Virus record (IMG/VR): IMGVR_UViG_2645728091_000017
Coordinates: 1 to 23,397 of that record
Length of the DNA stretch: 23,397 bases
DNA from: a virus
Taxonomy: Duplodnaviria > Heunggongvirae > Uroviricota > Caudoviricetes
Strand: one strand, 5' to 3'
The notes beneath the pieces are model-generated. The model saw only the letters and a list, made by a program, of their open reading frames with translations, had not been told where the DNA came from and searched no databases. Within the stretch, counting starts at the first letter, position 1. Each line of letters starts with the position of its first letter. Made by a program: the position numbers and the translations under genes. Below, in pieces: positions 1 through 23,397 of the stretch.

Positions 1-717
1 ATGCTGATTGTATCTGTTCTCAAATGCGGTAAAGAATTTACCCCCAAACACGCACAATGGCTGCATAGCCAATTTAAAGGCATACCTTCAATTTGCTTAA
101 CTGATGCTGGAAGTATCCCTGGTGTTGAAACCGCACCGTTAATGCATAACCTTCCAGGTTGGTGGTCTAAGATTGAGCTTTTTAATCCAAACCATCCGGT
201 AATAGGTGATAAGGATCTGCTTTATTTTGACGTTGATGTTGTCATAACTGGTGATATCAAAATCTTTGATGCGGCGAAAGAGTTCACTATGCTGCGTGAG
301 TTTAACCACCCTTCCAGGGTTAACTCATCCATTATGTTCATTCCTGCGTCTATCAAACAATATGTTTGGGATGCGTTCTGGACTGACCCCGAAAAAAATA
401 TGCATGAATGCCAAACAGAAGATAAATGGGGTGATCAGGGATTTCTGGGCAGCGTCATGAAACCTGTATTGTGGCAAGATATAATTCCCGGCTCTGTTGT
501 TAGTTACAAATGCCATATAGCCACACGCAAAATGATAGGTTACAACCCTGACTTGGCATCAGATTATGCTACTGGCAAAGTTCCTGATGATGTTTCAGTT
601 GTATGTTTTCACGGTAGTCCTCGCCCATGGCGAACAGGGTTCAGTTGGGTTCCTTCCTTTTCTGTACGCGATACCCTGTATGGTAAATTCAAAAATTTTA
701 AACTCAGTTTGAAGTAA
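1..717 (+). CDS. Hypothetical protein, AT-rich moron; possible DxD-motif glycosyltransferase-like enzyme (speculative). May be 5'-truncated by the window edge
   Basis: 238-codon ORF on the strand opposite the late operon, visibly lower GC than the structural genes, followed by a strong intrinsic terminator. Contains LLYFDVDVVITGD (D-x-D-like). No family recognised with confidence. Confidence 0.35.
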   Translation: MLIVSVLKCGKEFTPKHAQWLHSQFKGIPSICLTDAGSIPGVETAPLMHNLPGWWSKIELFNPNHPVIGDKDLLYFDVDVVITGDIKIFDAAKEFTMLREFNHPSRVNSSIMFIPASIKQYVWDAFWTDPEKNMHECQTEDKWGDQGFLGSVMKPVLWQDIIPGSVVSYKCHIATRKMIGYNPDLASDYATGKVPDDVSVVCFHGSPRPWRTGFSWVPSFSVRDTLYGKFKNFKLSLK

Positions 718-3929: not shown

Positions 3930-4662
3930 GAATCATTCCCTTTATTCCATCAAGATTATCGCCAACCAGCATCATGGCAGCGGTGTAAACGGCAGACTGC
4001 TGCGGAATGTCCTTCATCAGTTCCAGTAACGTGGTGCCGGTATCTCCGCTGGCAGTAAAAACCCACGCTCTGGCACTCTTTCCCTGTAAATCATTCAGGC
4101 CGCTGGCCACATCTCTGATAAGCTGGTCACGCAGCTGCGTGAACTCGCCCAGCTGTTTTTTCAGCCCTTCGATATCAAACCCGGCACACGCCGCCTTTTG
4201 TGCCTGGCTGATTGCCATAGCAGATAAAGCTGCCCTGCTGGTTGGTACAGACAGTGGAATGGACGCAGGTAACGCTGCGGCGGCTTTCGCCGGGATCTGC
4301 ATCTTTTCAATAGCCAGCGCTGCGAAGGATTGCGCCAGCCGTTTTACCTGCGTGAATGCCGGGGCGGGGAAAATCCCGACCAGGTTATTCAAGCTGGCCA
4401 TAAAGTTTTCCTGCGTCTGTCCGGTGACCATCATAATCACCACGTCCGCATTCCCCCCCGTTCCGGCCAAGCGTTCAGCAAGATAGCGAACGGCATTAAC
4501 CGGGCTGAGATATGCCCCGTTCGCAGTCTGCTGTCCCAGCCCATAAATCCACGGATGCGCAGGGACGATCGAACAGTTCAGCGCAGCAACAGAATCCGTG
4601 AAGGCCAGACGTGCTTCACGCCACATTTCCAGGCACCTCCGGCCACACAATTTCCGGTGCAT
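3901..4662 (-). CDS. Late-operon protein, about 240-253 aa, function unassigned
   Basis: ORF immediately downstream of the tail fiber assembly gene in the same operon. True start may be the internal Met of MWREARLAF. Family not recognised. Confidence 0.45.
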   Translation of the reverse strand: MHRKLCGRRCLEMWREARLAFTDSVAALNCSIVPAHPWIYGLGQQTANGAYLSPVNAVRYLAERLAGTGGNADVVIMMVTGQTQENFMASLNNLVGIFPAPAFTQVKRLAQSFAALAIEKMQIPAKAAAALPASIPLSVPTSRAALSAMAISQAQKAACAGFDIEGLKKQLGEFTQLRDQLIRDVASGLNDLQGKSARAWVFTASGDTGTTLLELMKDIPQQSAVYTAAMMLVGDNLDGIKGMIHDFDPDTGA

Positions 4663-5207
4663 CTTCCGGTTGAATACGGTTCAGTAAAACGCGGTATTTT
4701 TTCCATGCGGTAAGCAGCAGTGCTTCTTCTTCGGTCGCCATGTCTAAATCAACGGCATCCTGCAATGTGGCAATGGCGTCACTGGCCTGTTTAAGCAGTC
4801 TTTTCTTTTCGGCATCTGCCTCGCTGACTAATGCAATTCGCATGGCCTCCGCATCATCCACCCACCCACGCCTTACCATTCCATTTTTGCCAGGCATTAG
4901 CCGGTGCTAACGTGGTTGTCCCTTCCGGGTACCCCCCTGGCTCGATGATCACCACTTCATTACCGTTTTCTGTATCAAACACCACCTCACCACGATGATC
5001 CTCACGGGAAATCCATCTTTGCTTCTCTGAATCAAAAATTGCCACAAACCCCGCTTTGATTACCGGTGGTTTTATTGTGGTGCAGTTGACTGGCAGTCCG
5101 GTATGCGCAGGTATAAAAGCATCACCCGAACCAATAAATTCATTCGTGTCTGAACGCAGGTTATAAACAGTAACTGTTTGATCGGTTTCACTCATTTTAA
5201 AAGTCAT
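4616..5207 (-). pseudogene. Tail fiber assembly protein (Tfa/gpG-like) split by a frameshift
   Basis: N-terminal part (4854..5207, MTFKMSETD...QKWNGKAWV) and C-terminal part (4616..4897, ...DDAEAMRIALVSEADAEKKRLL...) lie in different frames and together resemble one Tfa. The junction is in the repeat TGGGTGGGTGG (minus strand, about 4857..4868). Confidence 0.6.
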
Positions 5208-6781
5208 TATGCGAGTCTCACTATGTAGTTAAATGCAATATTCTTAACTGTCGTTTCTGTGTTACCCGACGCGGCGACGCTAATCGTGTGACTATGTGCG
5301 CCAATTGCTACGGTATGAGAGTGAGCGCCAATACCTACGGTGTGATTGTGTGCGCCAATAGCTACGGTGTGCGCATGGTTTCCCGCCGAACTTGTAGTAG
5401 TCGCGCCCTTATCCTGTCTGGGTACACCATAATCCGAACCGCCAGACTGCACACTAACGGCAAACCCGACAGTGTGCGTATGCGCCCCCGTTGTATTTGT
5501 CGTTTTCGTGCCATAGTCAAATGTGCTCGCCGTTTTAGTACCGTAATCAAATGAGGATGTTGATTTCGTCCCCAAATCGGTACTGGATGCACTGGCTGTG
5601 TGTGAGTGGGATTTATTACCATCATCTTCATAGGACAAAACTTCGCGGCCGTCTGGTTTCCCTTTGATTGTCCAGCGGCGCATGTCAGGAATAACACCCG
5701 ACGGATACGCGATGGCCAGTAAAGGATATGCAACCTTATCAAAAGATTGTCCCTGCATAATTGCCCACCCTACAGGCGGGATATTCGTTGGCCACGGAAG
5801 CGGCACACCAACCGGCAGAACATCACTACGACTTAAAACCGCCAGTTCACCCAGTTCCAGACTTTTTCTGGCTTTCGCTTTGTCGTTAACATCAGCAAGG
5901 TTTGCATCCTTACGCAAAAAATCGCTGCTGGCCTGCTGTTCTCCCAGGCTACCTTTTGGCCGTAGATCCGTGATGTTGCCATCCACATCAATGCTGGCCA
6001 CCGCAAACACATAATGCTGAACCCCGTTCTGAACGTAATCAGCAAGATTTGCAGCCACCGTGATTTTGCTCTGCACATTCCAGACACTGGTCAGCGTCCC
6101 TGTCCAGCACACATCCAGCCAGACTTTTACCGGCTTTGTCGTCACCGTAATATTCTGATTCGCAGCCAGTGACGCACGAAGTCCAGCCACATAACCCGTG
6201 CCTTTCGTGACAAAAAACTGATTGCCGGTTTTGGCTACCAGATACCCGTTACCAAAAAACGCAGCCGCACCATAGATATCCATATTTTCAAGGCGCTGGC
6301 GCTCATCCATTCCGGCCATACGCGCGGTGAAATCAATCTGCCAGGTCTCAGCGGGCGTATTAATCCCGGTTTCCGTTTGTGCGCCGTTGTACTCCATCAG
6401 AAACGAGCGGGTCAGCACGTTCCCCTGTTGCCCTTCTTTTGTTTTCAGTTTCTGCTGTGATGGTGCATGGACAATCATTGCCAGCGTACCGCTGGCCTTA
6501 TTGAGCAGACCGATCCAGTTAAAACTGAAATCACCCACATCTGCGCCCAGCACTACGGAATAAACCACCCCGTTTTCATTCACCACACCTGTGCGGGTAA
6601 CAGACTGCCGGTGAACAATCTGTGCTGTCGGGGGCAACGCTTCATTGCGATCAACAGGTGTATCCGGGTTTAAATCCGGCACACTGGCAAAAACAAATTC
6701 GTCCAGTAGTACCGGTTCACCCGTTGCGCCCTGCTGTGCTTTCCAGTTTTCAAACGCCAGTGTGATGGCTGTCTGTGACAT
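5207..6781 (-). CDS. Tail fiber protein (P2 gpH-like N-terminus; C-terminal tip with His-x-His repeats)
   Basis: 524 aa. Position between the baseplate genes and Tfa, with a 1-nt stop/start overlap (TAATG) with Tfa. C-terminus carries DYGTKT(A/T)S(T/S)F repeats and GAHxHTV(A/G)I repeats. Confidence 0.8.
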
Positions 6782-18761: not shown

Positions 18762-20478
18762 ATGGCTAAATACTCAGAAGAACTAAAAGGCGTTGTCCGC
18801 GCACTTTATTTGCGCCGCTATACGCCAAAAGAAATTGCATCAGAACTAAATCTGCCGAATGCGCGGATCGTTTACTACTGGGCTGAGAAATACAGCTGGG
18901 CTGATTTACTCAGTTTTGAAAGCACAGAGGAGGCAATTGAACGTCGCTACCAGCTGCTGGCCAGCCGCGATAATAAAACCGATCTAGACCTCAAAGAAAT
19001 GGACATGCTGATTGCCCACGCCACAAAGCTACGTGCTCAAAGCAATAAGCATAAAGAAAAGATGGCCAGCGGCCAGAGTAACGGGCAGGCAGCTGCGCGC
19101 GACAGCAACAGCGATGAACCGCGCCCCAAACGCAAAAACAGGAAAAACGATATTTCTTCTCTGACTCAGGCGGATTTTGACACCTGGGCGGAAGAACATC
19201 TTTTTGAATACCAGAAACACCTGCGCAGGAACATCGGCCAGCAGGTCAGGAACATCCTTAAAAGCCGCCAGATCGGTGCCACCTGGTACTTTGCATTTGA
19301 AGCCTTTGAAAACGCGGTCATGACAGGCGATCCGCAAATCTTCCTGTCTGCCTCCAAAGTCCAGGCGGAATACTTCCGGTCTTACATCGTCAACATTGCA
19401 GAACAGTATTTTGGCATCACGCTGACCGGCAACCCGATCCGCCTCAGCAACGGCGCTGAACTGCGTTTTCTCTCAACCAACAAAAACACGGCACAGTCCT
19501 ACAGTGGCCACCTGTACTGTGACGAATATTTCTGGGTGCCTAACTTCGCCAGGCTTAACGAAGTGGCCAGCGCAATGGCCACCCATGACAAATGGCGTAC
19601 CACCTACTTTTCAACGCCCTCAGCCAAAACGCACCAGGCTTACCCGTTCTGGACGGGTGAAGAATGGAAACAGGGCAGCAAAAAACGCGCGGCCGCCCAG
19701 TTCCCGTCCTTTGATGAAATGCGTAACGGCGGGCGGCTTCAACCTGGCCAACATCGAGAAGCTGCGCAACCGCTACAACACCGCCACCTTCAACATGCTC
19801 TATATGTGCGTGTTCGTAGACAGCAAGGATTCCGTATTCAGCTTTTCAGACCTGGAAGCCTGCGGCGTGGAGGTGGATACCTGGCAGGATCACAATCCGG
19901 ACGCTGCGCGGCCATTTGGTGACAGGCCAGTATGGGGAGGATTTGACCCGGCACGCAGCGGCGATTTGTCGTGTTTTGTGATTATTGCCCCGCCGATGTA
20001 CGCCGCAGAGAAATTCCGCGTTCTGAAGGTCATTAACTGGAAGGGCATGAACTTCCGCTATCAGGCCAGGCAGATCGAACTCCTGTTTAAAAAATACAAC
20101 TTCACCTATCTGGGAGTGGACGTTACCGGTATTGGCCAGGGTGTTTTTGACAACATCCAGCATTTTGCCATGCGCGTGGCCGTCGCCATTCGTTACGACA
20201 TGAACACAAAAAATCAGCTGGTACTGAAAGCGGCGGACGTGGTGGAAAGTCAGCGTATTGAATGGGACAAGAACCTGAAAGAGATCCCGGCCAGCTTTAT
20301 GGCTGTACGCCGCACCACCACGCAAAGCGGTAACGCCATGACATTTGTCGCTGACCGCAGCCAGGACACTGGCCACGCGGAGGCGTTCTGGGCAATTACC
20401 CACGCCCTGCATAACGAACCACTCAACTACGAAAACAAACCGAAATCCCGCTGGGGTGTAAGGAAAGAGGCTGCATGA
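18762..20478 (+). pseudogene. P: Terminase large (ATPase) subunit, P2 gpP-like, interrupted by a +1 frameshift
   Basis: N-terminal ORF (18762..19922) is terminase-like up to ...SFDEMRNG, then reads a nonsense tail. The downstream ORF (19504..20478) becomes terminase-like from GFNLANIEKLRNRY. Junction is at GGCGGGCGGC (19728..19737); removing one G restores a single reading frame of about 570 aa. Confidence 0.8.
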
Positions 20479-20530
20479 GTAAAAAAACCGCTTCGTTAAG
20501 CGCAACCCGCGCGGCGATAAGTCCAAAAAA

Positions 20531-21535
20531 ATGAGCATCATCACATTCGGCAAACCGGAACCTGTCCTGACCACCGGCACGGATTACCGCGACATCTGGT
20601 ACGACAATGCCGCAGATCACTTTACCCAGCCGATTGACCGGCTGGCACTGGCACAGCTTATCAATCTGAATGGTCAGCATGGCGGCATCATCCACGCCCG
20701 GAAAAATATGATTGTGTCTGATTATATGGGCGGTGGCCTGACTTACGACCAGCTGGAAGCCGCAGCGTTTGACTATACAACCTTCGGGGATATTGCGATT
20801 GGCAAAATCCGCAACGGCTGGGGGGATGTGATTGCCCTGGAACCTTTACCCGGCCTGTATATTCGCCGCCGTAAAGTCAGGGACAACGCCACAGACCAGC
20901 CCGGCGATTATGTGGTGTTACAGGATGGTGAACCGCAGGTATGGCCGCAGGAAGATATCATTTTTATCAAGATGTACGACCCGCAGCAGCATATCTACGG
21001 GCTGCCAGACTATATCGGTGGCGTACACTCGGCATTGCTTAACAGTGAAGCCGTGATTTTCCGCCGCCGCTACTACCACAACGGCGCTCATACTGGCGGC
21101 ATTCTCTATACACGCGATCCCAGCATGACGGATGAAATGGAAGAAGAAATTGAACAGCAGCTGCGTGACAGCAAAGGTATCGGCAACTTCTCGACCATTC
21201 TGGTGAACATACCTGGCGGGGATGGGGATGCAATCAAGTTCATTGAAATGGGGGATATCTCTGCAAAAGATGAATTTGCCAACATCAAAAACATCAGCGC
21301 ACAGGACATTCTCAACGCACACCGCTTTCCCGCTGGGTTGGCCGGAATTGTCCCGCAGAACACCGCTGGCCTGGGGGATGTTGAAAAGGCGGAAAGGATT
21401 TACAAGAAAAGCGAAATAGCACCTATTCAGCGCCGATTTATGACTGCCGTGAACAACGATCCCGAAATACCGAAACGTCTGCACCTTCACTTTGATTTAA
21501 GTTACACAGAATCAACGGATAAGGATGCGGCATGA
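20531..21535 (+). CDS. Q: Portal protein, P2 gpQ-like
   Basis: 334 aa directly downstream of P on the same strand; size and composition match P2-family portal proteins. Confidence 0.85.
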   Translation: MSIITFGKPEPVLTTGTDYRDIWYDNAADHFTQPIDRLALAQLINLNGQHGGIIHARKNMIVSDYMGGGLTYDQLEAAAFDYTTFGDIAIGKIRNGWGDVIALEPLPGLYIRRRKVRDNATDQPGDYVVLQDGEPQVWPQEDIIFIKMYDPQQHIYGLPDYIGGVHSALLNSEAVIFRRRYYHNGAHTGGILYTRDPSMTDEMEEEIEQQLRDSKGIGNFSTILVNIPGGDGDAIKFIEMGDISAKDEFANIKNISAQDILNAHRFPAGLAGIVPQNTAGLGDVEKAERIYKKSEIAPIQRRFMTAVNNDPEIPKRLHLHFDLSYTESTDKDAA

Positions 21536-21855: not shown

Positions 21856-22005
21856 GGATATCTCCTGTTTGAGTCATCACTTATGCACAGAATGCTCTTT
21901 CTAGACCCATGACAGTGATCTCTGATATCTTTTCATTATAAGATCAGTGCGTTAAATTTTTTGCATTATATTATTACCTAAAATTGGTGCAGGAGATCTC
22001 CTAGA
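21856..22005 (+). promoter_or_regulatory. AT-rich intergenic region upstream of the cargo gene, bracketed by GGATATCTCCT (21856..21866) and the palindrome AGGAGATCTCCT (21991..22002)
   Basis: Sharp drop in GC after the ogr stop. Sigma70-like hexamers (TTGCAT at 21961, TAAAAT at 21979) are present but with non-canonical spacing, so the promoter call is tentative. Confidence 0.35.
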
Positions 22006-23043
22006 ATGTTTGGTTCAAAGCTTGTAACTAAACTGTGGGAAACCACAGCAGAAAAAGGTATTGGTGCTTTATGTAAGCCCTGGCAAATGCGTAGAGAGGG
22101 AGTTGCCAGTTTAGAAATGGAAAGAAAAAAAATGTTAGTTCTGGCTCAAACAGAGATGGATGTCGAGAACATAAAAAGCGGAAAAGCCATCGTTTCGTTA
22201 AATGATCTAAACAATCCCAAATTGATTTCATTAGAAAATAAACAAGAGTATGATAATTCAGGTTCAATGGAGCCTTACATAGATTTCGATAACTTAAAAA
22301 ACGCAGTAAGTACTCAACTCATTGCAAATGAAGTTCAAAAAGAAATAAACATTGCCAAGTCATTATTTGTTGCTGAAGAAATACTTTCTGTTGATCAGTC
22401 TGAGCCTACTGCTGAAAATATCGAAAATGATTGGTTGCTAAGGTGGAGAGATAGTGCTGCGACAAGTAGTTCTGAGAAGCTACAGGATTTATGGGGAAGA
22501 ATACTTGCAGGTGAACTAAAAAGCCCGGGGTCGTATTCATTAAGAACTGTTGATTTCATCAAAAACCTGACACAAAAAGAAGCAAATAAAATACAAAAAC
22601 TATTCTCTTTCCTCTTTCTTGATAGAATTATCAAGGGGGAAAAAGGTAGTTCTAAATTCGACAATGAATACTTAGATAATGAACTGAACTATAATTTTTT
22701 ATCTGAGATGCAGTCACTCGGAATCATTGCTGGGGTTGAGTCAATGGGATTAGCCTCAACTTTCAAGTCTCTTAGTGAAGAAACCTTTTTTTATTATCAT
22801 ATGTATAATGATAAAGTAATGCAGATTAAACATGACGATCCAGAGAAAGAACTTAAACTAAGGGTTTTAATTCTAACGCCACTTGGCCATGAGTTAAAAA
22901 GTTTATGCCCTGCTACAATTGATAGCATTTATCTCAATCATGTTATTGATGCGATTAAATCATTAGATTTTAAAGTTATCATTGGTGATTGCATACGTAA
23001 AGAAAATGGGGAAATATACTCTAAAAATGAAGTAGAAGTTTAA
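22006..23043 (+). CDS. AT-rich cargo protein of unknown function, 345 aa; candidate single-gene anti-phage defence or exclusion protein
   Basis: Long ORF in markedly AT-rich DNA between the ogr-like gene and a hairpin terminator. AGGAG 8 nt before the ATG. Contains NDWLLRWRDSAATSSSEKLQDLWGRILAGELKSPGSYSLRTVDFIKNLTQKEANKIQKLF, which I recall as DUF2806-like (unverified). Not a virion, lysis or replication gene. Confidence 0.7.
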   Translation: MFGSKLVTKLWETTAEKGIGALCKPWQMRREGVASLEMERKKMLVLAQTEMDVENIKSGKAIVSLNDLNNPKLISLENKQEYDNSGSMEPYIDFDNLKNAVSTQLIANEVQKEINIAKSLFVAEEILSVDQSEPTAENIENDWLLRWRDSAATSSSEKLQDLWGRILAGELKSPGSYSLRTVDFIKNLTQKEANKIQKLFSFLFLDRIIKGEKGSSKFDNEYLDNELNYNFLSEMQSLGIIAGVESMGLASTFKSLSEETFFYYHMYNDKVMQIKHDDPEKELKLRVLILTPLGHELKSLCPATIDSIYLNHVIDAIKSLDFKVIIGDCIRKENGEIYSKNEVEV

Positions 23044-23063
23044 AAACGTAAAAAATCATATCC

Positions 23064-23095
23064 CCCTCACTTTTATCAAAATAAAGTGAGGGTTT
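23064..23095. terminator. Hairpin terminator between convergent genes (possibly bidirectional)
   Basis: Perfect 10-bp stem CCCTCACTTT / AAAGTGAGGG (23064..23073 and 23083..23092) with a 9-nt loop, followed by TTT on the plus strand. Confidence 0.5.
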
Positions 23096-23193
23096 AAGAG
23101 ATATAGATGAATTTATAGTCAACTTACTATTAATCATCTTAAACACTATAACATTCGGCACCTTACAACTGAGATTATAGTATTGTCAATGAG

Positions 23194-23397
23194 TTAACAT
23201 TCCCCATCAGATACTGGAAAGGCCCCTGACCTTGTTTTTTTTAAATCTTTTCTAAGATCGTGTCGCATTTCTCCTGCAATCTCACCAATCCAGGCCAAAG
23301 CGATTGTTTTCTCGCGCTGGTCACTTTCGTACACATGGGCAATTTTGGCCAATAACTCAATGCGCTCCAGCTGTGCCGACGCTTCCAAAAGATCCAT
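23194..23397 (-). CDS. C-terminal fragment of a minus-strand gene continuing beyond the window (unknown function)
   Basis: ORF open to the window edge, ending ...PVSDGEC at 23194; convergent with the cargo gene. No family recognised. Confidence 0.3.
   Translation of the reverse strand: MDLLEASAQLERIELLAKIAHVYESDQREKTIALAWIGEIAGEMRHDLRKDLKKTRSGAFPVSDGEC

Follow-up and report, generated by a model that had tools for sequence, protein, structure and literature searches.

A four-base tandem duplication splits the tail fibre assembly gene of a P2-like Escherichia coli prophage

Two adjacent ORFs of the window (the whole stretch of 23,397 nucleotides that was analysed) look like the two ends of a single tail fibre assembly gene (tfa), which raises the questions of whether this gene is really broken, which event broke it, and whether the break reflects the decay of a prophage or an error in the sequence. 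The window corresponds to the late-gene region of a P2-like (Peduoviridae, Quadragintavirus-type) E. coli prophage that is integrated beside mntR/ybiR/ldtB. The first-pass annotation of this DNA had placed a break in tfa at 4850-4900, had proposed either a 4-bp tandem duplication or a 1-nt indel as its origin and, considering also what it called a terminase frameshift, had left open either a decaying prophage or systematic indel errors at G-rich repeats. We found that the break is real, that it lies on the minus strand and that these coordinates span it (Table 1).

One gene in two reading frames

On the minus strand, the break reads, 5' to 3', ...TGG CAA AAA TGG AAT GGT AAG GCG TGG GTG GGT GGA TGA TGC GGA GGC..., and the repeat that had been quoted for this site, TGGGTGGGTGG, is the minus-strand reading. 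The 5' fragment is made of 115 native codons followed by Gly-Gly and TGA; the frame is thus shifted at codon 116 and translation stops two codons later. Past the break, the +1 frame reads ...RRGWVDDAEAMRIALVSEADAEKKRLL... (in a longer reading, ...GWVDDAEAMRIALVSEADAEKKRLL...) until a stop at 4616. Gene callers start this 3' fragment at the GTG at 4859-4861, giving 81 aa, and its frame is open back to an ATG at 4895-4897, giving 93 aa; the two fragments overlap by 8 nt (GTGGATGA). Since the two ORFs match positions 12-126 and 127-204 of the PHROG 105 profile, that is, consecutive halves of one family, they correspond to a broken gene and not to two chance ORFs. The (GTGG)3 tract at the break occurs once in the window, compared to 0.00 occurrences expected from 100 dinucleotide-preserving shuffles, and it was absent from the Tandem Repeats Finder output, even at score 30.

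A megablast search using window positions 4600-5220 as the query matched 35-36 complete E. coli genomes and 8 phage records, the latter corresponding to four ESSI2 Quadragintavirus phages. Every listed full-length match to the tfa region had 617 (616) bases where the window has 621 (620). In four annotated relatives, tfa is one CDS of 588 nt encoding 195 aa and overlapping the stop of the tail fibre gene, and the same layout is found in XYEH3934. When the window was aligned with phage ESSI2_ev015 and with E. coli XYEH3934, MFDS1019527 and 2018-18.25PC, the sole indel in tfa was a gain of 4 bp in the window, with which whole-window comparisons agreed. In three of the four relatives aligned, this site is GCGTGGGTGGATGATG, i.e. 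(GTGG)2, where the window has GCGTGGGTGGGTGGATGATG, and the more distant EC42405 (80%) has AAATGGGAGGATGATG, with no repeat there. In silico deletion of one GTGG unit (4 nt) restored a tfa ORF of 195 aa, whose product is found verbatim in E. coli (e.g. HBN1781062.1; 12 contigs).

Since relatives carry (GTGG)2 and since the removal of 4 nt gives back a known protein, the tfa lesion is a +4 bp tandem duplication. The first of the two origins proposed earlier is therefore the right one, the alignment with relatives showing exactly +4 bp, from (GTGG)2 to (GTGG)3, and the 1-nt indel is not, the alignment gap being of 4 bp. Any of the three units could be the new copy, as the alignment does not distinguish them. 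It had also been considered that relatives might encode the two halves as separate genes, and this did not hold either: every close relative has Tfa in one ORF. Searches for exact copies of the duplicated junction gave no match in species-representative genomes or JGI metagenomes; these searches carry no weight, E. coli being one genome in the species-representative set and the lineage being rare.

The repaired Tfa matches Pfam PF02413 (Caudo_TAP; E = 2.4e-35, 122 bits for a cutoff of 22.1) and PHROG 105 'tail fiber assembly' (1.6e-82). The C fragment alone reaches 103 bits on PF02413, and the N fragment has a precomputed match to PF28596 (Caudo_TAP_N). Lambda Tfa, P2 gpG and Mu gpU are tail fibre assembly proteins of the PF02413 family, to which the repaired Tfa also belongs: lambda Tfa is 55.5% identical to the repaired protein over residues 1-191, and Mu gpU (PDB 5YVQ_B) aligns with residues 103-191 of the repaired protein, gpU residues 84-174 aligning with the 3' fragment. 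In 416 of the 480 matching phage records, lambda included, one tblastn piece covers at least 80% of the repaired Tfa. Unlike lambda Tfa, P2 gpG and Mu gpU, however, the window gene can yield only fragments of 117 aa and 81-93 aa. A Tfa of ~175-200 aa with both domains joined in one piece is encoded by sister prophages (see below) and relatives and not by the window copy, which, being split into 117 aa and 81/93 aa, is a pseudogene of this family rather than an intact member.

PMC9608196, citing North et al. 2019, describes Tfa proteins as modular: fibre binding is the task of a variable N-terminal domain, and trimerisation and assembly depend on a conserved helical domain at the C-terminus. 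The break in the window lies at the junction of these two domains. Because it parts the N domain from the C domain, no normal one-piece Tfa chaperone can be made, and the chaperone function of the split Tfa has presumably been lost.

The tfa gene follows the tail fibre gene immediately and in the same orientation, an arrangement common to all relatives, and the tail fibre protein has Pfam Phage_tail_fib, Collar and Phage_fiber domains. At the 3' end of the tail fibre gene, window positions 5286-5371 contain about three 27-nt repeats coding for GAHxHTVxI-type units (the Pfam Phage_fiber repeat), and similarity to ESSI2_ev015 and XYEH3934 breaks down around 5359-5473. These sequences suggest variation of the receptor-binding tip at this end of the gene.

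Table 1. Features of the window considered here (positions in the window; lengths of products in amino acids)
Feature	Position	Strand	Remarks
238-aa ORF at prophage end	1-717	+	PHROG 1962 'glycosyltransferase' (moron category)
tfa pseudogene (tail fibre assembly protein / chaperone)	4616..5207	-	592 nt here, 588 nt (195 aa) in relatives
3' tfa fragment	4616..4861	-	conserved C-terminal helical domain (Caudo_TAP)
5' tfa fragment	4854..5207	-	117 aa, ends ...QKWNGKAWVGG-stop
(GTGG)3 tract	4858..4869	-	one 4-nt unit more than the (GTGG)2 of relatives
Tail fibre gene, presumed Tfa client	5207..6781	-	524 aa, intact; stop overlaps tfa start
terL (large terminase) pseudogene	18762..20478	+	59-bp deletion, junction 19729..19739
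Portal gene	20475..21535	+	1-nt deletion A8>A7 at 20481..20487, codons 3-5
345-aa DUF2806 protein ORF	22006-23043	+	weak precomputed Abi_alpha match

Two further lesions and the intact sister prophages

Two sister prophages, L031 (GCA_036604525.1) and L033 (ERZ28624499), were reached via their identical tape-measure protein. Over ~20.9 kb, each shares 99.87% identity with the window (~21 substitutions), and both encode a Tfa of 195 aa, a TerL of 591 aa and a portal protein of 353 aa. Apart from a deletion that belongs to L031 itself, the only frame-breaking differences between the window and these sisters are +4 in tfa, -59 in terL and -1 in the portal gene.

In terL, the deletion removes one copy of the 11-nt direct repeat GCGG(A/G)CGGCTT together with the 48 bp between the two copies: where the sister has GCGGACGGCTT-(48 bp)-GCGGGCGGCTT, a single copy is left in the window, at 19729-19739. 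Codons beyond residue ~326 are out of frame, and the called products are of 386 aa and 203 aa compared to 591 aa in the sisters. A broken terminase was thus correctly noticed in the first-pass annotation, but the lesion is a 59-bp direct-repeat deletion and not a small indel. In the portal gene, the native start (ATG 20475) leads to a dead-end peptide of 19 aa, and a restart at ATG 20531 gives a product of 334 aa compared to 353 aa in the sisters. The remaining late genes of the window have the same lengths as in relatives. When compared to L033, the window therefore carries several inactivating lesions in virion genes (tfa +4, terL -59, portal -1), as defective prophages do.

The split tfa, the split terL and the 334-aa portal gene co-occur on the same contigs. 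Among 24 contigs obtained by the tape-measure look-up, 19 carried the lesions and 5 were intact, and no intermediates with one or two lesions were displayed among these 24. The deletion proper to L031 is a 1-nt loss in an A-run of the baseplate J gene (window ~7506), where no protein is called; it is an independent decay event of the same prophage in another lineage.

Between the head-completion and small-terminase genes, window positions 15791-15977 contain about nine imperfect 21-nt tandem repeats (consensus TATGGGTATGTGCACCCACAC), whose copy number varies within the lineage, one contig (L032) having one unit fewer. The sisters are unaligned across 15829-15925, inside this array, a length difference that is unrelated to the three lesions.

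Function, sequencing error and switching as alternative readings

If tfa still worked despite its break, this could be through a programmed +1/-2 ribosomal frameshift or through two coupled polypeptides that jointly chaperone the fibre. The position of the break between the variable N and the conserved C domains would suit such a gene, as would the overlap of the stop with the GTG start (GTGGATGA). Half-length Tfa ORFs also recur in (pro)phage genomes, since PHROGs contains an N-only (phrog_7290) and a C-only (phrog_3792) Tfa family, and C-terminal-only ORFs starting from the homologous codon are found in another Tfa family. The split is not conserved, however: tfa is one ORF in every relative, including the 99.87% identical sisters. 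Programmed frameshifting was excluded, as the two-frame layout is found in none of the listed E. coli matches, the 8 phage records or the sisters, and as, by direct reading, no P-site codon in GCG TGG GTG GGT GGA TGA re-pairs in the +1 frame. Concerning coupled translation, Shine-Dalgarno-like elements are badly spaced, with an AAGG ~10 nt upstream of the GTG and a GGGTGG that abuts it, and the C-only allele P0007 (see below) is a multi-kb deletion remnant rather than a designed split. In addition, terL is broken in the same lineage, so virions would gain nothing from a working Tfa. Altogether, we consider it very improbable that this tfa still works. Some coupled translation of the C-terminal piece across the 8-nt overlap may take place, but that N and C domains made as coupled polypeptides still assemble fibres, leaving the tail module usable, for example in a tailocin-like particle, is a long shot; if it was true, a two-piece Tfa could keep an otherwise intact tail module in use after the loss of head genes.

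The cluster of 81-aa C-terminal fragments also holds other tfa alleles. Allele P0007 comes from three independent deletions of 14.7, 10.8 and 3.6 kb (contigs L017, L018 and L019), with 2-7 nt of microhomology, in a background that is ~100% identical to the XYEH3934 prophage; their end points lie upstream of one and the same GTG (Tfa codon 116), at distances of 37, 66 and 12 nt, respectively. For allele P0002, the frameshifted 122-aa product points to a 7-nt deletion. A fragile site in the middle of tfa, as these deletions and the duplication might together suggest, was discarded: a look-up with the 81-aa product retrieves only lesions that end within ~100 nt before that GTG, and this retrieval bias explains the clustering. 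An unbiased look-up with the 110-aa end gene of this prophage family, which is indexed in 2528 blocks, gave scattered endpoints among the 10 contexts shown (including L036-L044), about six of which lacked most late genes and resembled different deletion remnants, as judged from their gene tables. The prophage family is simply degraded very often, and a hot spot is not required.

Systematic error would mean that an indel was introduced at a G-rich repeat, that the true sequence is (GTGG)2 and that the gene is intact. The tfa and terL lesions both sit at G-rich direct repeats and the portal lesion sits in a homopolymer, as this would predict, but a clean gain of 4 nt or a clean loss of 59 nt is rare as a sequencing error, and the lesions turned out to be widely shared. 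A public collection has the 117-aa product, residue for residue, in 34 blocks, from which 24 contigs were read. The split tfa allele occurs on no fewer than 18 independent contigs, which come from NCBI isolates, Logan reassemblies and ENA metagenomes, with unrelated sources and pipelines, and which lie at 0-2 substitutions from the window. Five such loci were fetched, from an NCBI isolate (GCA_002460965.1), three Logan reassemblies (ERR6043917, DRR567781 and ERR6058174) and an ENA metagenome (ERZ28588494): they were 99.98-99.99% identical to the window (1-2 substitutions), with (GTGG)3 in all five. Similarly, GCA_019502985.1 matched the window at 100.000% identity along 20,846 nt, and (GTGG)3 was present in 10/10 loci of the window lineage that contain the site (L007-L011, L024, L026-L028 and L034; 99.98-100% identity to the window).

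Intact alleles were recovered by the same kind of approach. Of 24 contigs retrieved with the identical tail-fibre protein, 18 had a split tfa and 6 an intact one, and one intact contig (L025) differed from the window by 2 substitutions and the 4-nt unit over ~3 kb. Both alleles were even recovered within one ENA metagenome scaffold series, in which tfa is intact in ERZ28624499 and split in ERZ28588494 and ERZ28649066, and this also argues against an artefact. Since the listed complete E. coli genomes with this tfa (617/621 or 616/620 bases) are all without the extra unit, the site is not generally error-prone. An artefact is thus hardly credible and, between the two explanations initially left open, it is decay that stands and systematic indel error that falls, the three lesions recurring together across independent assemblies and metagenomes. 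On assembled population data, the tfa lesion is best read as an inherited mutation that marks a lineage, and not as a systematic error.

Just as implausible is a contingency locus in which (GTGG)n acts as a phase-variable on/off switch of tail-fibre assembly: a coding tetranucleotide repeat does shift the frame when a unit is gained or lost, and states of 2 and 3 units are both found in near-identical prophages, but there are only 2-3 units, the lineage shows no length heterogeneity (3 units in 10/10 loci), EC42405 has no repeat at the site, and the sisters with 2 units are also set apart by ~21 substitutions and two other lesions, so that the two states correspond to separate lineages and not to switching. 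Known tetranucleotide switches have much longer tracts, typically of five or more units.

Early decay of the prophage and its known counterparts

We therefore favour the view that the tfa break is an ordinary step of early prophage decay through replication slippage, with a probability of roughly 0.93, and the earlier reading of a decaying prophage with a 4-bp tandem duplication proved correct. According to this model, slipped-strand mispairing would have added one GTGG unit to the GTGGGTGG tract and inactivated tfa, the frame shift at codon 116 releasing the N-terminal fibre-binding domain without the C-terminal trimerisation domain. The same lineage has two more lesions of the slippage type, the 59-bp direct-repeat deletion in terL and the A8>A7 change in the portal gene. 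With these, the prophage would have lost DNA packaging and would be drifting to a cryptic state. The three lesions are a gain of a repeat unit (tfa), a deletion between direct repeats (terL) and the loss of one base in a homopolymer (portal), all presumably classical products of replication slippage. The data show directly that tfa is broken, that this state is derived and inherited and that it occurs together with the two other lesions; that slippage was the cause, that Tfa no longer functions and that selection no longer acts on virion genes is what we infer.

Cargo genes may matter for the fate of such an element. Window positions 21856-23269, ~1.4 kb between the ogr-like and replication genes, have no counterpart in the XYEH3934-type relative, and the DUF2806 ORF located there had no PHROG match; PADLOC recognised none of the cargo ORFs. 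As a putative defence or moron cargo, this ORF may favour the retention of a decaying prophage. At the other end, the 238-aa ORF had no Pfam match, and relatives have at this position either an acetyltransferase or another cargo made of several genes (DNA_processg_A / DUF6680). This end of the prophage appears to be a swappable cargo slot, possibly serving surface modification.

For annotation, these results mean that one tfa pseudogene should replace two small genes and that the prophage deserves a label as defective (terL, portal, tfa). They also provide a clean, dated case of the first steps of decay, with three slippage-type lesions set against the ~21 substitutions that separate the window and an intact sister. 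Events of this kind are already known, and they involve no new mechanism and no new biology.

One counterpart is the stf gene of laboratory lambda PaPa, in which a single frameshift, reportedly described by Hendrix and Duda (1992; reference 18 of PMC9608196), separates the side-tail-fibre gene into two ORFs. As in the window, a small frameshift of the slippage type has turned one member of the fibre/chaperone gene pair into two neighbouring ORFs, and the split is recognised by comparison with an intact relative. Lambda PaPa is viable with its split stf, side fibres being dispensable. In lambda PaPa, however, a 1-nt change affects the fibre gene itself, whereas in the window a 4-nt duplication affects the chaperone gene and terL is also lost. 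The second counterpart is provided by cryptic or defective E. coli prophages (e.g. those of K-12), which carry tfa and stf pseudogenes and remnants. In these elements, as in the prophage family of the window, virion genes are progressively lost by frameshifts and deletions and the element stays in the chromosome; unlike them, the window represents a very early stage of this process, with three small lesions in ~21 kb.
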